From positions 107,180 through 146,503 of the forward strand of contig JBFMAB010000122.1 in assembly GCA_040755835.1 (NCBI GenBank): DNA of 39,324 nt. Direction: 5' to 3'. Both the position numbers and the translations under genes were made by a program. The DNA is from Myxococcota bacterium. GTDB lineage: Bacteria > Myxococcota > Myxococcia > Myxococcales > Myxococcaceae. Within the stretch, counting starts at the first letter, position 1. The number at the start of each line of letters is the position of its first letter. The notes below the pieces were generated by a model. That model was not told the origin of the DNA and made no database searches. It saw nothing but the letters and a program-made list of their open reading frames with translations. This document shows, piece by piece, positions 15,764 through 29,003 of this stretch.

Positions 15764-15975
15764 GAGGGGGAGATTTAGCCCCAGACGCCCCCGCCCTCCA
15801 GTTTGCTCCGGCTGTTGCCAGGCCGGGCTTCAGGAGCGCAAGGCGCCGCGCGCGCGGGCGAAGCTGCACGTCGCGTCCGAGGCAGCCTGAGTCCACAGGC
15901 CTGTCGCACCTGCACCCACCGCCCGAGAAGAACGCGACGCGCCGGGGCGGGCGTGTAGACTCGCAGCGGTTTCGC

Positions 15976-18009
15976 GTGGCCACGCCCAGCTTCATCGCCC
16001 CGACCAGTCCGCTCGATCGGCGGCGGCTCGGGAAGTATGAGGTGCTGTGCCGTCTGTCGACGGGCGGCATGAGCGAGATCTACCTCGCGCACCAGACGGG
16101 CCTGGCGGGCTTCAACAAGTTGGTGGTGCTGAAGACCATTCTCCCCGACATCGGCGGGGAAGAAGACTTCGTGCGCATGTTCCTCGACGAGGCCCGCACG
16201 ACGGCGGCCTTCAACCACCCGAACATCGCGCAGGTGTACGAGCTGGACACGGACGACGGCCAGCTCTTCATGGCGATGGAGTTCGTCCAGGGTTGCACGC
16301 TGGTGGAGATGGCGCGGGCCTGCCGCGCGGCGCGCGAGGCGATCCCCATCGGCTTCACGCTGGCGGCGGTGCGTGACACCGCGCTGGCGCTCCACTACGC
16401 GCACACCTTCACCGACGCGCGCGGCCGCAAGCAGATCGTCATCCACCGCGACGTCGCCGAGAAGAACATCATGGTGACGTACGAGGGCGTCACCAAGCTG
16501 CTGGACTTCGGCATCGCCAAGGCGCTGGGGCGCTCGGGCCGCACCGGCGTGGGCATGGTGAAGGGGACGAGCGGCTACATGTCCCCCGAGCAGATCCGCG
16601 GCGAGCCGCTCGACGGGCGCAGCGACATCTTCGCGTTGGGGGTGGTGGCCCACGAGTGCCTCACCGGCCTGCGGCTCTTCCACGGCAAGTCGCCCGAGGA
16701 AGGGATGATGGCGGCGCTCAAGGAGAACGTCGTCCCGCCGTCGAGGTGGAACCCGCAGGTGCCGCCGGCGGTGGACGCGGTCGTGCTCAAGGCGCTGCAG
16801 CGCGATCGCGAAGCGCGCTTCGCCACGGCCCTGGAGTTCGCGCGCGAAATCGACCGCGTCGGCCACGGGCTCATCTGGCACCCGGAGCAGAGCGGCGAGC
16901 TGGTGCTGAAGTACTTCAACGACCGCCGTGCCGAGACGCGCCGGTTGCTCGAGTCGTCCGTCAACCAGGAGGTGACCGGCGAGATCCGGGTGAAGTCCAT
17001 CATCCAGAAGGTGCGCGCCACCGCGTCGACGCCGGGCACGGACGCTCCGAAACCCGAGCAGGCCACGCCCGCGCCCACCCCCGTCATCAGCGCGGCGCTG
17101 CGGCGCCCGACGCAGAACATGCCGCCGGCGACGCAGGGCACGGCGCCGAACATCAACCCTGTCACGCTGCGGCAGCCCGACCCGACCACCTCGCCGGCGC
17201 GCCCGAAGGTGCTGCGCGCCGACCCGCCGCCGGCCCCCGCGCCGCGCGCCATCGACCTGACGCCGCGGGCGAGCGAGTTCGACGACGACGAGGCCGACGC
17301 GAAGACGATTCCCGCGGCGGCGCTGCCCGACGAGGTCCGCGAGCTCCGCAAGCGCATGCTGGAGGCCGCTCAGGCGAAGAAGGCCTCGCCCACCGGCACC
17401 ACCACGCCCGTCGCTGCGTCGGTGCGAACGAGCCGTCCGGACACCAGCTCCATCACCGAGCCCACGCCCGTGCAGCCGCCGGCGCCGGTGGTGGCCTCCG
17501 CCGCCCGCGCCAACCTCGCCACGGAGCCGGAGCGCCGGCCGGTGCTGCCGGTGACGGACGCGAGCCCGGCGCTCAAGGTGCCACCGCGCGACACCGACGG
17601 CGACACGCTCAGCATCACCAACCGCGGGTCGCCGCCCACCGACTGGGACGACGACGACGTGGGCGCGCGCACCACCATCGCCCGCCCCGACGAGGTGCTG
17701 GGGCAGATCAAGAAGCAGCAGTCCGACGACGACCTCCGCGCGACGCAGGAGCGCGAGCCCTCGTCGGTGTACCTGCGCGAGGTGCGCTGGCGGAGCCGCG
17801 CGTTGATGGTGGTGCTGGTGGCGATGGCGCTGCTCGCCGTCGTGGGCATCCTGGTGCTGCTGGAGGTCATCCCCCTGGGCGCCGCCGACGAGCCGCAGGC
17901 GGAAGCAATACCCGCCGTCGTCCAACCCACGGCAGACACCGCGGCCGAGGCGCCGCCCGAGCCGCTGCCCGACGTCCCCGCGCCCACACCCGCGCCGAAC
18001 AAGAGGTAG
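15976..18009 (+). CDS. Hanks-type Ser/Thr protein kinase with a Pro-rich linker and a C-terminal TM segment
   Basis: Kinase subdomains: VLK (Lys), HRD catalytic loop (HRDVAEKN), DFG, SPE. Long Pro/Ala-rich region. TM (ALMVVLVAMALLAVVGILVLL). Confidence 0.85.
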   Translation: MATPSFIAPTSPLDRRRLGKYEVLCRLSTGGMSEIYLAHQTGLAGFNKLVVLKTILPDIGGEEDFVRMFLDEARTTAAFNHPNIAQVYELDTDDGQLFMAMEFVQGCTLVEMARACRAAREAIPIGFTLAAVRDTALALHYAHTFTDARGRKQIVIHRDVAEKNIMVTYEGVTKLLDFGIAKALGRSGRTGVGMVKGTSGYMSPEQIRGEPLDGRSDIFALGVVAHECLTGLRLFHGKSPEEGMMAALKENVVPPSRWNPQVPPAVDAVVLKALQRDREARFATALEFAREIDRVGHGLIWHPEQSGELVLKYFNDRRAETRRLLESSVNQEVTGEIRVKSIIQKVRATASTPGTDAPKPEQATPAPTPVISAALRRPTQNMPPATQGTAPNINPVTLRQPDPTTSPARPKVLRADPPPAPAPRAIDLTPRASEFDDDEADAKTIPAAALPDEVRELRKRMLEAAQAKKASPTGTTTPVAASVRTSRPDTSSITEPTPVQPPAPVVASAARANLATEPERRPVLPVTDASPALKVPPRDTDGDTLSITNRGSPPTDWDDDDVGARTTIARPDEVLGQIKKQQSDDDLRATQEREPSSVYLREVRWRSRALMVVLVAMALLAVVGILVLLEVIPLGAADEPQAEAIPAVVQPTADTAAEAPPEPLPDVPAPTPAPNKR

Positions 18010-20203: not shown

Positions 20204-20692
20204 TCAGCCGCCCTTCAGCAGCGTCAGCAGCGTCCGGGGCAGGAGGAAGCGCAAGCTGGCCTGGCCCAGCGTGATGACGGCGCCGTCGTGCAGCGGCACG
20301 CGCGCGCCCTTGGCCACCGCGTCCCCGTCGAGCCACGTGCCATTCTTCGACTGCGCGTCGCACAGCATCCACGTCTTCTGGCGCTCGTCGAACTGCAGCC
20401 AGGCGTGGAAGCGGCTCACCGAGGTGTCGTCGATGATGACGTCGTTGGACTCCACGCGGCCCAGCGTGATGCCCATGGGGAACGCGTTGTTGGTGCGCTG
20501 GGCCTTCTCGACGAAGAAGAGCTGCGGGTCGCTGTCCTCGGGCGGCTTGCCCACCACCAGGGCGCCCGTCTTCTCCCAGTCCTCGGCGGCCGCCGCGCCC
20601 TTGCGCTCGAAGAGGAGCACCGGCGTGGTGAGGCGGAGCTCGACCGCTCGGGGGTCCTTGCGCCACTGCTGGGAGAGGTCGCTGAGCAGCAT
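20204..20692 (-). CDS. FHA-domain protein
   Basis: FHA signature: GR...NDVIIDDTSVSRFHAWLQF...DAQSKNGTWLDGDAV (the GR...S.HA...NGT core). Confidence 0.7.
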   Translation of the reverse strand: MLLSDLSQQWRKDPRAVELRLTTPVLLFERKGAAAAEDWEKTGALVVGKPPEDSDPQLFFVEKAQRTNNAFPMGITLGRVESNDVIIDDTSVSRFHAWLQFDERQKTWMLCDAQSKNGTWLDGDAVAKGARVPLHDGAVITLGQASLRFLLPRTLLTLLKGG

Positions 20693-20728
20693 GCGTTCGC
20701 GGACGGCGAGGCTAGCAGCACCGCCAAT

Positions 20729-22720
20729 TCACCGCCGCCGTGCACCGGCGAGCAGGTGGTCCGCGTTCTCCGCGTACACCTTCCGCAGCACCTCGGGCGG
20801 CAGACCCAGGCCGGAGATGCGCCACCGGCCCTGGATGGGCGTCGGGTGGGCGAAGTCGCGGTCGCGCGTCTCGAAGAAGCGCCAGGTGGCGGTGAAGAAG
20901 TGGGACACGTCGGCGGGCGTGGGCGGCGTGGCGCCGGTGCTGCCCAGCATCAGCTGCGCGTCGGTGGGGCCCACGCCGAGGTCGGTGCCGAAGAGGATGC
21001 GGTCCTGGTAGCGGACGAAGAGGTCGCGGAGCGCCTCGGGCGGCTGTCGGCCCAGCTCCGGCACGCGCGCCGCGGTGTCGACGTACAGGTTGGGCAGCGC
21101 GTCCAGCATCGCGGCGACGGCCCACGGGTCCTCCGGGTCGTTCCCGAAGTGCACGCCGATGAAGGTGGTGCGCGGGTGCCGCGCGACGCGGCGGCCGTAG
21201 GCGGCGAAGAGCGCGTCCCACGACGGGACGTCGGCGCCCGCGTAGCGCCACCCCGGGTGCGCGGAGAGCTCGTCGATGCGCTCATTGGCCTCGGTCGCCG
21301 GCTGCCAGAAGGCCTTCGGGTCGCCAGTGTGAATCGAGATGGGCAGCCCCAGCTCGCCGGCCTTCTCGAAGAGCGGGTCGAGGCGCGGGTCGTCCACCCC
21401 CAGCAGCGTGCCGTCCGGCGCGCGCGCGCCGAGTCCGAGGGACTTGAAGAACTTGAGCCCCTTCGCGCCGAGCCGCTGCGCCGCCTCCGTCTGCGCCACC
21501 AGCTCGTCGATGGAGAGTTCGCCCCTGGCGAAGGCGCCCACCGGCGGGTTGGCGAACACGACGACGCGGCCGTTCGTGCTGCGGGCGGCCTCCACCGAGG
21601 CCTCGAGGCCCTCGCCCGGCCAGCCGCCCGACAGGTTGATGGCGACGTCGATGCCCCACGCGTCCATCAGCGCGACGAGGCGAGGCACGTCGGCGGGCGA
21701 GACGTGCACGTGCGCGTCCACCTTGCGGTAGCGCGGGGCGCCATCGGCGGTGGCCTTGTCGGGAGGCAGGTAGATGCGCTCGCCCTGGTCCAGCACCACC
21801 CACTCGCGCGACGCATCGTCGGCGAGGAAGAGCGCCTTCGCGGCGTCGATGTCGAGGCCGGGCATCTTCGCGAGGCCCTTCGCCCAGGGCTGGAAGAAGT
21901 TGTCGTAGTGCGTCGGGAGGACGCGGCGCGGCTTCGCTTCCGCGAGCAGGCCGTCCACCTTGGCCTTCGTCTGCGCTTCACCGGTGACGCCGACGATGAG
22001 GGTGGCGGCGGGCGGCGCGTTCAGCTCGCCGGGCGCGAAGGTGCTGGTGGGGTGGAACCACAGCGAGGTGCCGTTGGCCTCGAGGCGGTAGAAGAGCGTC
22101 TCGTCGAGGGCGTACTCGAAGAAGCGCAGCGGGCCCGCGGTGGGCGAGACGACGCCGCCCATGGGGTGCGAGATGCCGGCGATGTCGGCATGGCGGGTGC
22201 CGCGCACGTCGATGGTGAAGGTACCCACCGTGAAGTGGTCGCCGGGCTTCACGAGGCGGGTGCGCCCGGCGGGGACGCCGCGGCTCAGCGCGAGGTTGAC
22301 GGTGGACTGCGAGCCGATGACGAGCGCACCGGTGCGCAGGGCAATGGCCGGCACGTCGAGCGCATGGTCATGGTGCGTGTGGTTGACGAGAATGGCGTCG
22401 GCCTTCGGGCACTCCTTCGCGCCGAGGGCTTCGTCCGGCGACAAGGGAGCGAGCAGCGCGAGCGGCGGCGGGCGCGTCGGCGTCGGGTCGAGCAGCAGCG
22501 TGGTGGTGCCGTCGCTCACCTCGTAGCCGGAGACGCCGAGGTAGCGGACGCTGAGGCCGTCGGTTCGCGGCGTGCGGAGCGCGGCAGGTCCACGGTGTGC
22601 GGCGGGGACGGTCCACGGCACGTGGCGCACGGCGACGAGGAAGACGGCGACGGCCAGCGCGGGGAGAGCGAGCAGCGCGGCGAGCGCGACGAGGAGGCGG
22701 CGGCGGAGGCGGGGTGTCAC
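20729..22720 (-). CDS. Membrane-anchored fusion of an MBL-fold metallo-hydrolase domain and an amidohydrolase (TIM-barrel) domain
   Basis: GTG start (VTPRLRRRLLVALAALLALPALAVAVFLV is the signal/anchor). MBL motif HTHHDH, then an amidohydrolase metal site (VDAHVHV) and a conserved C-terminal HxGxxD-like region. The upstream 748 codons of the 1411-aa ORF were rejected. Confidence 0.65.
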   Translation of the reverse strand: MTPRLRRRLLVALAALLALPALAVAVFLVAVRHVPWTVPAAHRGPAALRTPRTDGLSVRYLGVSGYEVSDGTTTLLLDPTPTRPPPLALLAPLSPDEALGAKECPKADAILVNHTHHDHALDVPAIALRTGALVIGSQSTVNLALSRGVPAGRTRLVKPGDHFTVGTFTIDVRGTRHADIAGISHPMGGVVSPTAGPLRFFEYALDETLFYRLEANGTSLWFHPTSTFAPGELNAPPAATLIVGVTGEAQTKAKVDGLLAEAKPRRVLPTHYDNFFQPWAKGLAKMPGLDIDAAKALFLADDASREWVVLDQGERIYLPPDKATADGAPRYRKVDAHVHVSPADVPRLVALMDAWGIDVAINLSGGWPGEGLEASVEAARSTNGRVVVFANPPVGAFARGELSIDELVAQTEAAQRLGAKGLKFFKSLGLGARAPDGTLLGVDDPRLDPLFEKAGELGLPISIHTGDPKAFWQPATEANERIDELSAHPGWRYAGADVPSWDALFAAYGRRVARHPRTTFIGVHFGNDPEDPWAVAAMLDALPNLYVDTAARVPELGRQPPEALRDLFVRYQDRILFGTDLGVGPTDAQLMLGSTGATPPTPADVSHFFTATWRFFETRDRDFAHPTPIQGRWRISGLGLPPEVLRKVYAENADHLLAGARRR

Positions 22721-22900
22721 GCGCGGCCTTGTGTCGGAGTGACCCGCCCGGCGCCAGCCAGCGCGCGCAGAACCGTCGGAGGCGTCGGGAATCGCGCGGG
22801 CGTGGGCGCGTGGGCTTGCGTGCGCGCGGTGACTCGGGCCAGATGCGCGTCCGTCCGCGGGCGGCCGGCGCCTGCGCGTCTTGTTTCCCGGGGAGTCGCC

Positions 22901-24058
22901 ATGACCACCAACGCCTTCCGCTCCGTGCTGCTCGCGGCCTTCGCGGCCGTCGCGTTCGCCGCGTGTTTCTCGGCCGTGCCCGAGGGCGCGACCTGTACCA
23001 CCGACGCCGACTGCGGCAGCGGCAAGGTGTGCGCCAACGGCGCGTGCACGACGGTGTCCGACGACGGCGGCGCGGGTGGCGGGACGGGTGGCGGCACGGC
23101 CGGTGGCGCGGGTGGCGGTGACGACGCGGGCCAGGGCGGCGGCGCGGGTGGTGGAGACGACGCGGGCCAGGGCGGCGGCGCGGGTGGTGGCACGGCGCCG
23201 GACGGGGGCATGCCGGACGCGGGCGTGTGCGGCTGCATGAGCGTGCTGGGCTGCCAGCCGGGCGACTCGCCGCTGGCGTGCGGGACGGGTGGCGCGGGCA
23301 CGATGTGCGTGAACTGTGGCATCGGCGAGCAGTGCGTCAACGGCGCGTGCGTGATGGCGGCCTGCGGGCCGATGACGTGCAACGGCTGCTGCACGAACAA
23401 CTTCTGCGTGACGCCGACGCAGCAGAACCGATTGGCGTGCGGGTCGAATGGCGCGGCGTGCATGGGCTGCGGCATGGGCCAGCAGTGCACGAACGGCGCG
23501 TGCGTGACGCCGCCGCCCTGCGACGCGACGACGTGCCCGACGGGCTGCTGTCAGAACGGCCAGTGCCAGCCGGGCAACACCAACCGCTCGTGCGGTACGG
23601 GTGGCGCGGCGTGCATGCCGTGCGGCCTGGGGAACCAGTGCGTGGCGGGCGCGTGCTTGACGCCGGACGGCGGCGCGGTGACGCCGGTGGCGGCGGGCTC
23701 GCCGTGCACGTCGTCGATGGGGTGTCAGCCGCCGCAGGGCGCGTTCTGCATCCGGGAGTCCGCGTTCGGGCAGCCGTCTGGCTACACGGGCGGCTACTGC
23801 TCCGCGCAGTGCGGGACGATGCAGCCGTGCGCGTCGGGCGTGTGCGTGACGGAGCCCCTCTTCGGGGTGAGCGGCAGCACCTGCCGGGCGAGCTGCACGG
23901 GGCCGGGCCTGGGGCAGTCGACGTGCCGGACGGGCTACGTGTGCGTGGGCATCGCGGGCGCCACGACGGGCTACTGCCGGCCGAACTGCAACAATGGCGG
24001 CCTGGCGGCGTGCCCGACGGGGCAGATGTGTGACGCGATGACGGGCTACTGCCAGTGA
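22901..24058 (+). CDS. Secreted Cys-rich tandem-repeat lipoprotein
   Basis: GGGAG RBS, signal peptide and lipobox (AVAFAAC), a Gly-rich spacer, then about three 44-aa repeats of TCxxGCCxNxxCxxxxxNRxxCGxxGAACMxCGxGxQCxxGACV, and a Cys-rich C-terminal domain. Confidence 0.7.
   Translation: MTTNAFRSVLLAAFAAVAFAACFSAVPEGATCTTDADCGSGKVCANGACTTVSDDGGAGGGTGGGTAGGAGGGDDAGQGGGAGGGDDAGQGGGAGGGTAPDGGMPDAGVCGCMSVLGCQPGDSPLACGTGGAGTMCVNCGIGEQCVNGACVMAACGPMTCNGCCTNNFCVTPTQQNRLACGSNGAACMGCGMGQQCTNGACVTPPPCDATTCPTGCCQNGQCQPGNTNRSCGTGGAACMPCGLGNQCVAGACLTPDGGAVTPVAAGSPCTSSMGCQPPQGAFCIRESAFGQPSGYTGGYCSAQCGTMQPCASGVCVTEPLFGVSGSTCRASCTGPGLGQSTCRTGYVCVGIAGATTGYCRPNCNNGGLAACPTGQMCDAMTGYCQ
23099..23198 (+). repeat. 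Direct 42-bp DNA repeat encoding the Gly-rich spacer (GGDDAGQGGGAGGG, two copies)
   Basis: gacgacgcgggccagggcggcggcgcgggtggtgg is repeated in tandem. Confidence 0.6.
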
Positions 24059-24096
24059 GGGGTGGCGGCGCGTGCCCGACGCGCCCGCCTCAGGCT

Positions 24097-24795
24097 CTAC
24101 GCCGACGCGTCCGGCGACGCAGCCGCCGGCTGCTTGCTCTCCATCACCTTCTTCGACACGAACACGTACACCCCGAACGCCACGAGCAGCGCGGGAATCA
24201 TCCACACGAAGTTCTTCCGCACCATGTCCGTGCCGCTGTGCACGAGCTCCGCGTACGTCATCGTCGCGGTGCTCTTCCCAATCACGTACCCGATGACGGT
24301 CAGCACCGTCACCCACAGGCCGGCGCCGAGCCCCGTCCACAACGTGAAGCTCTTGAGCGGCATCCTCGCGATGCCCGCGGGGATGGAGATGAGCTGGCGG
24401 ATCGCTGGCAGCAGCCGGCACACGAACGTCGCGCCCGCGCCATAGCGCCGGAACAGCTCCTCGGCCCGGCGCAGCTTGGGCGGCGGCAGCAGGAAGTACT
24501 TCCCGTACTTCTCCAGGAACGGTGTGCCGAGCCAGCTGAACAGGAAGTAGTTCACGTACGCGCCCAGCAGCGAGCCCGCCGTGCCCGCGAGGACGGCCAC
24601 CGTCGCGTCCATCACCGGGTTGCCCAGCGTCAGGCCCCCGCGCGCCGCGAGGAACCCCGCGGGGATCATCACCACCTCGCTCGGGAACGGGATGAAGGAG
24701 CTCTCGATGGTCATGAACAGCACCACCAGCAAAAACCCCCACGTCGGCGCGTAGGCGGCGAGGGTCTCGATGTGGGCGATCAACATCTCGGTCAC
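24097..24795 (-). CDS. DedA-family (SNARE-associated / TVP38) membrane protein
   Basis: DedA signature (FIPFPSEVVMIPAGFLAA...G, RLLPAIRQLISIPAG) and multiple TMs. Confidence 0.8.
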   Translation of the reverse strand: MTEMLIAHIETLAAYAPTWGFLLVVLFMTIESSFIPFPSEVVMIPAGFLAARGGLTLGNPVMDATVAVLAGTAGSLLGAYVNYFLFSWLGTPFLEKYGKYFLLPPPKLRRAEELFRRYGAGATFVCRLLPAIRQLISIPAGIARMPLKSFTLWTGLGAGLWVTVLTVIGYVIGKSTATMTYAELVHSGTDMVRKNFVWMIPALLVAFGVYVFVSKKVMESKQPAAASPDASA

Positions 24796-24860
24796 GGGTC
24801 TGGCCTCCGGTCGCGGGGCGGATTACCACCATTCCCTCGGCATGCGAAACGAGGGCTGTC

Positions 24861-25520
24861 ATGGGTGAGGCGATCGACCGGGTGCGCGCCGCCGTGCGCC
24901 GGCTCAAGGTGTTTCCGCTGCCGTCCGTCGTCCTGCTCCCCGGCACCGTCCAGCCCCTCCACATCTTCGAGCAGCGCTACCGTGACATGGTGAAGGCCGC
25001 CCTCGAGTCCGACGGCGTCTTCGCCATGGCCCAGGTCCTCCCCGGCCAGGAAAACCGCCTCGCCGGCTCGCCCGAGCTCGAGCCCATGCTCTGCGCCGGC
25101 GTCATCGGCATGCACGAGCAGCTCGAGGACGGCCGCTACAACCTCGTCCTCGTCGGCGTCGCCCGCGTCCGTCTGGTGCGCGAGCTGCCGCAGGTCGCCA
25201 GCTACCGCGAGGTCGAGGCCGAGCTCGTCGAGGATCCGCCCGTCGACTCCGAGGAAGAGGTTCCTCTCCGCCAGGCCGTGCTCGAGCTCATCGCCCGCGT
25301 CCCCGACGAGGTGGGCGACAAGGTGGCCACCGTCACCAGCCGCCTGCACGGCGGGCAGCTCGCCGACGTCGTCGCCGGCACCATTCTCCAGGAGCCCGCC
25401 CAGCGCTTCGAGGTCCTCCTCCAGACCGACGTCCGCGCCCGCCTCCGCGAGGTCACCGACGAGGTCATGCAGGTCGTCGCCCGCCTGAAGCCGAAGAAGC
25501 AGAAAGGGCTGCTCCATTGA
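24861..25520 (+). CDS. Lon N-terminal (LON substrate-binding) domain protein
   Basis: The N-terminus FPLPSVVLLPGTVQPLHIFEQRYRDMV matches the Lon N-domain start (PLFPLxxxVLFPGxxLPLxIFExRY). About 220 aa, with no ATPase or protease domain. Confidence 0.7.
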   Translation: MGEAIDRVRAAVRRLKVFPLPSVVLLPGTVQPLHIFEQRYRDMVKAALESDGVFAMAQVLPGQENRLAGSPELEPMLCAGVIGMHEQLEDGRYNLVLVGVARVRLVRELPQVASYREVEAELVEDPPVDSEEEVPLRQAVLELIARVPDEVGDKVATVTSRLHGGQLADVVAGTILQEPAQRFEVLLQTDVRARLREVTDEVMQVVARLKPKKQKGLLH

Positions 25521-26317: not shown

Positions 26318-26469
26318 CTGGTGGACGTGACGCCGGCGCGCCCGGCGGCTCCTTCAGCTCCGCGTCCCCGTTCCGCATCGCCTCACCGGCAGGTCGGTCC
26401 TTGAACCCGCCGGGGGGGCGCGCTATGGGGCGAGCCGCTTCAGTCACCCTTACGCGGAACGGCCACACC

Positions 26470-27636
26470 ATGATCAAGGACTACCTCTTCACCTCCGAGT
26501 CGGTCACCGAGGGGCACCCGGACAAGATCTGTGACCAGATCTCCGACGGTGTCGTCGACGCGCTGATCGCGAAGGATCCCCGCGCCCGCATCGCGGTGGA
26601 GACGCTGGTGAAGACGGGCCTCGCCATCGTGGCCGGCGAGGTCACCACCAACGCGTGGATCGACATCCCCACCATCGTCCGCAAGACCATCACCCACATC
26701 GGCTACACCGACTCGTCGATGGGCTTCGACGGCCACACCTGTGGCGTCATGGTCGCCATCGAGGGCCAGTCGCAGGACATCGCCCGCGGCGTCGACGAGA
26801 AGGGCGGCAAGGAGCAGGGCGCGGGCGACCAGGGCATGATGTTCGGCTACGCGTGCAACGAGACGCCGGAGCTGATGCCCGCGCCCATCCAGTACGCGCA
26901 CACGCTGACCCGCAAGCTGTCCGAGGTGCGCCGCAAGAAGCACTCCTGGCTGCGCCCCGACGGCAAGTCGCAGGTCACCGTCGAATACAAGGACGGCAAG
27001 CCCGTGCGCATCGACGCGGTGGTCGTGTCCACCCAGCACGCCGAGGACGTCAGCAACAAGAAGATCAAGGACGTCGTGATGGAGGAGGTCATCAAGGCCT
27101 CGCTGCCCGCGAAGCTGATGGACAAGAAGACCAAGTTCTTCATCAACCCGACCGGGCGCTTCGTCGTCGGCGGCCCGATGGGCGACTCGGGCCTCACGGG
27201 CCGGAAGATCATCGTCGACACCTACGGCGGCATGGGTCGTCACGGCGGCGGCGCCTTCTCGGGCAAGGACCCGTCGAAGGTCGACCGCTCGGCGGCGTAC
27301 ATGGGCCGCTACATCGCGAAGAACGTGGTGGCCGCGGGCCTCGCGAGCCGCTGCGAGCTGCAGGTGTCCTACGCCATCGGCGTGGCCGAGCCGGTCAGCG
27401 TGATGGTGGAGACGTTCGGCACCGCCACGGTCGCCGAGGACCGCATCGCCCGCGCGGTCCGCGAGGTCTTCGGCCTGAAGCCCCGGCAGATCATCGAGCA
27501 CCTCGACCTGCTCAAGCCCATCTACCAGCGCACCGCCGCGTACGGCCACTTCGGCCGGCCGGAGTTCAGCTGGGAGAAGACGGACAAGAAGGACGCGCTC
27601 CGTGACGCCGTCGGCGCCAAGGTGAAGGCGGCCTGA
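26470..27636 (+). CDS. metK: S-adenosylmethionine synthetase
   Basis: MetK motifs: [51 protein letters not shown]. 388 aa. Confidence 0.95.
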
Positions 27637-27653
27637 GCCGACCGGAGTCGTCG

Positions 27654-29003
27654 ATGACGAAGGGCCGGCAGGGCGCATCGCACGCAGGCTCGCTGGCGGC
27701 GCTGGCCGCCTCGCTGGACACGGCCAAGCGCGCGCTGCCGGCGTCGGCGGCCGCGTCGAAGTCGAAGGACGCGCTGCGCGAGGCGCTCCGCGAGAAGCCG
27801 CCGGCCCGGGTCGAGGCGGAGGCGCCGTCTGTTTCCTCGCACGACGCGAAGTCCGCCGTGGCGTCGGGGGCGCGTGAGGCGAAGCCGACCACTGGGGCGC
27901 GGGCGCGGGACGCGAAGGCGAGCGCTTCGTCGAGTCGGGGGCCGTCGACGGCTGCACGCGGCGCGAAACCGGGCCCCGCTTCCAGCCGGGGGACTTCCGG
28001 GCCCGGGCACGACGCGGAGGGGAGCGCAACTGCGAGTCGGGGACCGTCGGCCCCTGCGCGCGACGCGAAGCCGAGCCCCGCGCCCAGCCGGCGAACGTCC
28101 GCGCCGGCGCGTGACGGGAAGCCCGGCGCCGCCTCCAGCCGACATGCCCGCGAGCCTGCGCGGGAAGCCAGGCCCAGCGTCCCTGCCGGCCGAGCGGCGA
28201 CGGCGCCGCCGCGCGACGAGAGCCGTCCTTCCAGCCGAGGTGCTTCCCCGCCCGCGCGCGAGGAGAAGCGCAGCGCCGCCGTCAGCCGCAGCGCGCCGGC
28301 GCCGGTGCGTGACGCGAAGGCGAGCGCCAGCGCGGGCCGCGTCGAGCCGAGGTCCGCCGCGTCCGCGCGAGCCGGTTCGGCGCCGCCCGTCCCGGCGCTC
28401 TCGTCTGCGGTTCCGCGCGCCGCAGCGCTGGCGTCGATGGCGCGCGCGCCGAGCCCTGTGCCCGCGCGCACGCCCGTCTCCCGACCGGTGGGCTCGGCGG
28501 TGTCGCCCCCGGTGGGGAACTCGCGCCGCCGCTACCCGCGGGCGGAGCTCACGGTGAAGGCGCGGCTCTCGCTCGCCGACGACCCGTCGCGCGTCTTCGA
28601 GGCGTCGCTGCCGACGGTGAACATCTCCGTGGGCGGGCTCTTCCTCGAGTCCAGCTTCTTCCTGAAGCTGGGCACCAGGCTGCTGGTGCACCTCTCGCTC
28701 CCGCCGAAGGGCCGCGAGGTGACGGTGAAGGGTGAAGTCGTGCGCGTCGAGTCGTCGGACGCCGGCCCGTCGGGCTTCGCCCTGCGCTTCACCGAGTACC
28801 TCGACGGCAGCGAGGTGGCGCTCGCCACCCACTTCCTCTCGCCGGTGCTGCGCGAGTTCATCAGCAGCTACGCGAAGCAGCACCGCTTCGACGCGAGCGC
28901 CGAGTACCTGGCGCACACCGCGGACGTGCTGGCCGCCTGGGAATTGAAGAAGGCCGAGCTCGGCGGCGACGTCTGGCAGATGACCTGGCGCGACGCGCGA
29001 TGA
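27654..29003 (+). CDS. PilZ-domain protein with a long N-terminal Ser/Ala/Arg/Pro low-complexity repeat region
   Basis: C-terminal PilZ motifs RRRYPRAEL (RxxxR) and NISVGGLFLES (D/NxSxGG). About 290 aa of degenerate ARDAKP/SRGPS repeats. Starts 18 nt after metK. Confidence 0.7.
   Translation: MTKGRQGASHAGSLAALAASLDTAKRALPASAAASKSKDALREALREKPPARVEAEAPSVSSHDAKSAVASGAREAKPTTGARARDAKASASSSRGPSTAARGAKPGPASSRGTSGPGHDAEGSATASRGPSAPARDAKPSPAPSRRTSAPARDGKPGAASSRHAREPAREARPSVPAGRAATAPPRDESRPSSRGASPPAREEKRSAAVSRSAPAPVRDAKASASAGRVEPRSAASARAGSAPPVPALSSAVPRAAALASMARAPSPVPARTPVSRPVGSAVSPPVGNSRRRYPRAELTVKARLSLADDPSRVFEASLPTVNISVGGLFLESSFFLKLGTRLLVHLSLPPKGREVTVKGEVVRVESSDAGPSGFALRFTEYLDGSEVALATHFLSPVLREFISSYAKQHRFDASAEYLAHTADVLAAWELKKAELGGDVWQMTWRDAR

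Follow-up and report, generated by a model that had tools for sequence, protein, structure and literature searches.

Which role can be assigned to the Cys-rich lipoprotein encoded at positions 22901–24058 (+) of the 39,324-nucleotide (nt) stretch of Myxococcota DNA presented here (contig JBFMAB010000122.1; the whole stretch is called the window below)? In myxobacteria, kin recognition, gliding, predation and multicellular development all depend on the cell surface, and to our knowledge most myxobacterial Cys-rich envelope proteins have no annotation. The open reading frame (ORF) translated into 385 amino acids (aa), 49 of them Cys (12.7%), with CC, CxC and CxxC motifs and with neither His nor Trp. 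We tentatively read the product as an outer-membrane-anchored lipoprotein in which a tethered, disulfide-stiffened stalk presents a binding head, and give this reading a probability of about 0.45.

Along its whole length, the protein matched “hypothetical protein AB1730_28335 [Myxococcota bacterium]” (P0001; NCBI and JGI) with 100% identity, and a protein search returned 136 relatives at E ≤ 1e-3. An earlier note, made from the sequence alone, had called such proteins myxobacterial and mostly uncharacterised; this identity and the Pfam, NCBIfam and PDB sequence searches, which gave nothing above threshold, agree with it. Of the relatives, only two fragments bore a functional name (“peptidase” and “serine protease”). 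The 29 loci detected in the GTDB species representatives were all in metagenome-assembled genomes (MAGs), labelled Myxococcota, Myxococcaceae, Archangium, Archangiaceae, Polyangiaceae or Haliangium, with two probably mis-binned contigs. The named protein relatives likewise came from Myxococcota MAGs, including Labilithrix. The two closest orthologues, at loci L034 and L019, shared 79% and 74% aa identity with the protein. Compared with them, the synonymous divergence (dS) was 0.44–0.63 and the ratio of nonsynonymous to synonymous divergence (dN/dS) was 0.30–0.32, in every module. The ORF is thus a real gene, under rather relaxed purifying selection.

Across 43 aligned orthologues, each Cys from C136 on was invariant and the remaining Cys were at least 90% conserved. 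The mature protein had 48 Cys, distributed over its modules as 4 + 8 + 10 + 10 + 16, each an even number. The mature Cys count was even also in 121 of 145 relatives (p ~1e-16), the exceptions being mostly mis-assigned lipoboxes or fragments. The even numbers per module and this parity indirectly support disulfide bonding. Relatives kept both ends of the protein; in between, the repeats numbered 1–7 and the tether varied in length. We defined the family by a lipobox, a Gly-rich tether, at least one 10-Cys unit (CxPxxCxGCCx4Cx8-10CGxxGxxCxxCx5Cx4C) and a 16-Cys C-terminal domain. The alignment, the regular-expression counts of units and the C-terminal hidden Markov model (HMM) all placed the protein in this undescribed family of P0001 orthologues.

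The claim of a secreted lipoprotein was supported at the N-terminus. Bacterial lipoproteins, the substrates of signal peptidase II, were recognized by a signal peptide whose n-region is positively charged and whose core is hydrophobic, with a lipobox of the form [LVIAF]-[ASTG]-[AGS]-C after it. By sequence, the protein belonged to them, with M1...R7, a hydrophobic stretch at aa 9–21 and the lipobox F19-A20-A21-C22. Homologues kept the lipobox as L/F-[AT]-[AG]-C (ACF/AGCF), and Cys22 is predicted to be the lipidated first residue of the mature protein. After this Cys came a conserved motif, C-[FL]-[SAT]-[PA]-V-x-E, with Val at +5 in 61 and Glu at +7 in 53 of 81 relatives, and with Phe or Leu at +2 in the family; the region just past it was variable. 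Perhaps it is a signal, specific to this lineage, for the sorting or export of lipoproteins. In Myxococcus xanthus, Lys at +2 leads to retention in the inner membrane and Ala at +7 to export to the matrix (PMC3222651). Here, +2 was Phe and +7 was Glu, so neither signal was present and, under the M. xanthus rules, neither inner-membrane retention nor matrix export is predicted.

Next in the mature protein was a four-Cys mini-domain, predicted to form a beta-hairpin. It was missing or halved in some orthologues, giving total Cys numbers of 45, 47 or 49. A search against the myxobacterial Cys-rich repeat families, as the earlier note had advised, did not place the protein in any of them: TIGR04201 (Myxo_Cys_RPT) scored 17.7 bits against a cut-off of 25 bits, and matched only the mini-domain. 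Five matches to TIGR04201 at E ≤ 0.1 were found among the 43 orthologues, the best of them (0.0022) no better than that of this protein. Pfam searches gave, on aa 21–50, DUF7107 (21.4 bits; gathering threshold 24.6), Dickkopf_N (20.3; 25) and EB (17.9; 24.3), all sub-threshold. Only two of the 43 orthologues matched these families at all, and the protein was not assigned to them. These 4–6-Cys hairpin modules have a spacing like that of the mini-domain and, by eye, like that of the last four Cys of each repeat. Pfam and NCBIfam searches with the whole protein and the 43 orthologues returned only such sub-threshold mini-domain matches.

The Gly-rich spacer of the earlier note was recovered as a low-complexity tether of aa 53–108, predicted to be disordered. 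Its length differed among homologues in the 43-sequence alignment. The duplication within it had a period of 36 bp (35/36 identical) instead of the 42 bp first given, and was enclosed by a looser 12/36-bp periodic array at 23065–23198, detected by Tandem Repeats Finder (TRF). The proposed recent expansion of the linker holds, because the copies are nearly identical here, despite the dS of 0.44–0.63 to the nearest orthologues, whereas L034 has two diverged copies of a 39-bp version and L019 a single copy. The tether probably changes its length through slippage at such short repeats in the DNA.

Three tandem Cys-rich repeats followed, as had been proposed. Units 2 and 3 were 58% identical (BLASTP E = 1e-11), and unit 1 matched unit 2 with E = 1e-8. 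The periodicity was well above chance, with DNA repeat families spaced 153 bp apart, and the protein period was 51–53 aa, longer than the 44 aa of the earlier note. Its eight Cys per unit apply to unit 1 only, an N-terminally truncated unit without the first two Cys and with CGC in place of CC; the full units 2 and 3 carry ten. The Cys spacing of the full unit, C-x4-C-x2/3-CC-x4-C-x8/10-C-x6-C-x2-C-x5-C-x4-C, was uniform over 340 units from relatives, with the consensus CxPxxCxGCCxxxxC...CGxxGxxCxxCxxGxxCxxGxC. Between one and seven full units were present per relative. The tandem units had no match to TIGR04201 or Pfam, and a PDB sequence search with the unit profile gave nothing significant. 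In a full-length AlphaFold2 model, built from the 43-sequence alignment, the repeats were predicted as beta-hairpins with a predicted local distance difference test (pLDDT) score of 70–90; the score was 74 overall and 80–90 in the C-terminal part.

A short D-G-G linker connected unit 3 to the C-terminal domain, hereafter the head. The further Cys-rich domain of about 130 aa in the earlier note thereby becomes a domain of 124 aa with 16 Cys. Besides the Cys residues, two motifs were conserved in it, T-G-Y-x-G-G-Y-C and C-R-x-G-Y-V-C. When modelled alone, from 30 diverse sequences, the head was predicted with a pLDDT of 93.5, a predicted template modelling (pTM) score of 0.83 and about eight strands; it had no fold match in the PDB and is possibly a new fold. 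It was unrelated to the repeat unit in a profile comparison (hhalign probability 3.5%). The C-terminal HMM matched 97 of 120 relatives, in which the head occurred in one, two or three copies. A HMMER scan of 1.84 billion cluster representatives with this profile yielded 1,727 matches with E ≤ 1e-3, including 574 with E ≤ 1e-10, which puts the head in at least 1,727 protein clusters. Arrays of 4–11 tandem copies of the head were common among these proteins, and it also occurred alone. Canonical lipoboxes stood at the beginning of many head-domain relatives. The head alignment gave only short fragments against an index of 5.8 billion proteins.

Pfam and NCBIfam searches with 30 more distant relatives gave nothing above threshold, except for one protein, P0279, a relative of the head domain. 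This 596-aa protein, encoded outside the window, combined a Peptidase_M10 (matrixin) domain, a bona fide DUF7107, the 16-Cys domain and a C-terminal, hydrophobic and Arg-rich tail similar to MYXO-CTERM. The use of the head thus extends to secreted proteases. Four other proteins from outside the window (P0066, P0078, P0081 and P0089) were lipoproteins with about seven 10-Cys units, in which a C2 domain (PF00168) replaced the 16-Cys head. These C2-ended relatives suggest that the repeat stalk is a general carrier of exchangeable terminal domains, and the swap is as expected of an exchangeable terminal module.

From this architecture we propose the following course. The chain would be exported, receive its lipid at Cys22 and go to the outer membrane, and its Cys residues would be oxidised to disulfides after export and lipidation. 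The Gly-rich tether would supply reach and flexibility, and the three units would act as a spacer that is stiff, resists proteases and can be adjusted in length. Such a spacer would hold the C-terminal domain, likely the ligand-binding part, off the membrane, and the protein would hence act in adhesion or recognition, be it between cells, between cell and matrix, or towards prey. Of the functions guessed in the earlier note (adhesin, toxin-like or metal-binding), adhesin best fits this stalk-plus-head anatomy.

Several points weigh against the stalk-plus-head reading. No homologue of known function points to a ligand or a localisation. The sorting rules applied are those of M. xanthus, and the host belongs to another, uncultured lineage. 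With the anchor at the N-terminus, the head would be distal only if the chain is extended, and the AlphaFold2 model of the whole chain had a pTM of 0.40. Conserved operon partners were not found, so the genomic context gives no functional hint.

The closest known parallel is the TraA receptor of M. xanthus. For its Cys-rich region, the role of a rigid stalk was proposed (PMC3325183), and the region was modelled as a disulfide-stiffened run of beta-hairpins that sets the cell–cell distance (PMC12045341). Like our protein, TraA (a PA14-like variable domain, TIGR04201 repeats and MYXO-CTERM) is a lipid-anchored protein of the myxobacterial envelope. Common to both is a long Cys-rich beta-hairpin run, thought to be stiffened by disulfides and to present a terminal domain off the membrane, and the mini-domain adds a weak TIGR04201 match. 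The unit here has ~51 aa and 10 Cys, that of TraA ~22 aa and 3–5 Cys. The anchor is an N-terminal lipobox here and a C-terminal MYXO-CTERM in TraA, which reverses the polarity. The head is a 16-Cys domain here and PA14 in TraA, and no traB-like partner gene was nearby. Pfam and NCBIfam gave no match to PA14 or MYXO-CTERM (TIGR03901), and the protein ended with ...MTGYCQ, lacking a hydrophobic or Arg-rich tail. By analogy, the protein may work like the TraA stalk while standing outside the TraA family.

Other likenesses were more distant. PDB sequence searches with full-length, head and unit profiles gave only noise from the Gly linker and non-significant matches, and Foldseek, run with the full model against the PDB, gave no match with an E-value under 1. 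Its highest-ranking alignments, none of them significant, paired the model with EGF-like, IGFBP-like, Dickkopf and knottin modules (Pvs25, IGF1R, SIBD-1 and Dkk4). Eukaryotic rods (furin-like repeats of EGFR/IGF1R, laminin-type and integrin EGF repeats, and the Cys-rich domains of TNFR) share the principle of tandem ~40–50-aa hairpin units pinned by disulfides, which make up a stiff spacer outside the cell. They differ in the Cys framework and have no significant similarity in sequence or fold (all E > 1), and the protein here is a bacterial lipoprotein. The framework I (CC-C-C) of alpha-conotoxin MII (GCCSNPVCHLEHSNLC) aligned with the sub-motif G-C-C-x-N-x-x-C-x(8-10)-C-G of the unit. This alignment was not significant (E = 0.27), covered four of the ten Cys and is a curiosity, not homology; by analogy, the framework hints at a 1-3/2-4 pairing for these four. 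The conotoxin-like sub-motif GCCxNxxC...CG lay at 23384–23446 in unit 2 and at 23543–23599 in unit 3.

The best-surviving alternative, unlikely in our judgement, is an envelope lipoprotein that faces the periplasm and serves purely as a structural element or spacer, which might for instance span or measure the periplasm or bind peptidoglycan. Outer-membrane lipoproteins face the periplasm by default, a surface-export signal is not known for this lineage, and a tether-plus-rod design suits a periplasmic spacer equally well. The periplasm being oxidising, the Cys argument would be unchanged. What speaks for exposure instead is the company of the head, which is fused to a secreted matrixin-type protease with a MYXO-CTERM-like tail and is repeated up to 11 times in arrays, a pattern seen more often in extracellular proteins. 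With ~0.3, dN/dS is relatively high, which is typical of exposed proteins, and Pfam and NCBIfam detected no peptidoglycan-binding domain.

It is improbable that the protein is a protease inhibitor or protective coat of the Kazal, TIL or antistasin type, directed against the cell’s own or competitors’ secreted proteases. Myxobacteria secrete many proteases, and tandem ~50-aa units with five predicted disulfides resemble the repeat design of eukaryotic inhibitors. Two fragmentary relatives were named after proteases and one head-domain relative carried Peptidase_M10. The names are, however, unexplained labels on fragments, and no conserved loop resembling a reactive site was identified. Pfam listed no Kazal, TIL, antistasin, WAP or hevein domain even at E ≤ 10, and neither the PDB profile searches with unit and head nor the fold comparison gave a significant match. 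The freely varying number of repeats also suits a spacer better.

More improbable still is a role in metal binding, which the earlier note had suggested, or in redox buffering; the Cys residues would then hold Zn, Cu or Cd in the manner of metallothioneins, or serve as thiol reservoirs, instead of forming disulfides. The Cys content, the CC, CxC and CxxC motifs and the absence of His and Trp would suit it. An exported lipoprotein in an oxidising compartment, with even Cys numbers in each module and even parity in 121 of 145 relatives, would not. The spacing fixed over 340 units is that of disulfide frameworks, and Pfam gave no metallothionein match. Metallothioneins have no regular secondary structure, unlike the regular beta-hairpin domains predicted here with high confidence.

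A SitA-type, OME-delivered lipoprotein toxin was also considered and rejected: Pfam and NCBIfam showed no toxin domain, no immunity gene was found, and the head has 16 conserved Cys, presumably in eight disulfides. The gene downstream was a convergent DedA/VTT membrane protein, in a neighbourhood of housekeeping genes.

The coding status itself had to be tested, because the window is GC-rich (72%, with many long artefactual ORFs) and two frames longer than 1,200 codons run through the region. There is next to no chance that the ORF is a frame left open by the high G + C content, given a G + C content of 0.60/0.70/0.94 at codon positions 1/2/3 with the third-position signal starting at the ATG at 22901, a Shine-Dalgarno-like GGGGAG, 136 homologues with conserved Cys, dN/dS ~0.3 at dS 0.44–0.63 and the identical gene call in NCBI, even though a 257-aa antisense ORF shares its third-position phase. 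The earlier note had itself raised the possibility of such an artefact, which these data refute. The upstream minus-strand gene showed a phase of its own. The two long frames, 20288–24058 (+) and 20729–24964 (−), with 1,256 and 1,411 codons, are high-GC shadow frames and not genes. The antisense ORF at 22717–23490 (−), which overlaps the gene, is likewise a shadow frame.

A wider proposal is rather doubtful. It holds that the 51-aa repeat and the 124-aa head are two undescribed families, the latter possibly with a new fold, that they form a modular toolkit of disulfide-rich surface proteins in the Myxococcota in which the head is a general ligand-binding module, reused across at least 1,700 protein clusters, both in arrays and attached to proteases, and that C-F-x-[PA]-V-x-E is a signal, specific to the lineage, for lipoprotein sorting or surface export. 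Cys-rich stalk proteins of the myxobacterial envelope are already known; new are the two modules, undescribed in Pfam, NCBIfam and PDB. The gene is a compact example of modular design, with a lipid anchor, a flexible tether, an adjustable repeat stalk and an exchangeable head. Defining both families would bring annotation to thousands of “hypothetical” proteins, and a structure or ligand of the head would reveal the binding targets of a large share of the surface lipoproteins in myxobacteria. As the host lineage is uncultured and the finding alone answers no long-standing question, what it yields for now is annotation and not mechanism. Nothing in it contradicts expectations for myxobacterial surface proteins.

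Table 1 Features of the lipoprotein gene and its upstream region, in window positions.
Feature	Position	Strand	Evidence
Candidate promoter: CTTGCG (22815–22820) and CAGATGCGC (22840–22848)	22815–22848	+	Upstream alignment of window, L034 and L019
GC-rich hairpin (22856–22876), then T-rich tract (TTGTTT) just before the ribosome-binding site	22856–22886	+	Terminator-like scan
Shine-Dalgarno-like GGGGAG, 5 nt ahead of the ATG	22890–22895	+	Read from sequence
Coding sequence, 385-aa Cys-rich lipoprotein, stop codon included	22901–24058	+	G + C at third codon positions, identity to P0001, dN/dS
Predicted lipoprotein signal peptide, aa 1–21 (R7, hydrophobic core), and lipobox F19-A-A-C22	22901–22966	+	Sequence, homologue conservation
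Post-lipobox motif C-F-S-A-V-P-E, aa 22–28	22964–22984	+	Residue counts among relatives
Four-Cys mini-domain, aa 32–49, C-x5-C-x5-C-x4-C	22994–23047	+	Predicted beta-hairpin, pLDDT ~90
Gly-rich low-complexity tether, aa 53–108	23057–23224	+	Predicted disordered, pLDDT <50; TRF array
Tandem 36-bp unit, two copies, each encoding DDAGQGGGAGGG	23120–23155 / 23156–23191	+	35/36 identical
Repeat unit 1, aa 110–150, degenerate 8-Cys version	23228–23350	+	Cys pattern, BLASTP against unit 2
Repeat unit 2, aa 155–201, full 10-Cys	23363–23503	+	Cys pattern, BLASTP, DNA repeats
Repeat unit 3, aa 207–252, full 10-Cys	23519–23656	+	Cys pattern, BLASTP, DNA repeats
C-terminal 16-Cys head domain, aa 262–385, 124 aa, beta-rich	23684–24055	+	HMM delimitation, alignment, AlphaFold2

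Upstream of the gene, the CTTGCG and CAGATGCGC boxes, conserved in three orthologues, and the hairpin are a candidate promoter and a candidate 5′-leader structure (Table 1). The hexamers can be read as TTGCGT (22816–22821) and CAGATG (22840–22845), 18 nt apart; a scan of the upstream region for the sigma-70 consensus found no site. The 5′ arm of the hairpin (CGGG-CGGCCGG) was conserved in orthologues. An Rfam search over the whole window gave nothing.

The gene is monocistronic, divergent from the gene at 20729–22666 (−) and convergent with the DedA/VTT gene at 24097–24795 (−). The divergent neighbour encoded a 645-aa fusion of a metallo-beta-lactamase (MBL) fold (Lactamase_B_2/3) with Amidohydro_2, preceded by an N-terminal hydrophobic segment. 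Within ±8 kb of the homologues the neighbours from the window did not recur, apart from the MBL-fold gene, which was kept only beside the closest orthologue, L034; distant orthologues stood in unrelated contexts. The wider neighbourhood was of housekeeping character, with a Ser/Thr kinase, a pseudouridine synthase, DoxX, FHA, a Lon N-terminal-domain protein, MetK and PilZ. No link was seen between the neighbouring signalling and MetK genes and the lipoprotein. The Ser/Thr protein kinase, FHA-domain and PilZ-domain genes (15958–17925, 20204–20725 and 27621–29003) represent signalling typical of myxobacteria. MetK, at 26434–27636, was 87% identical to the copy in locus L017.

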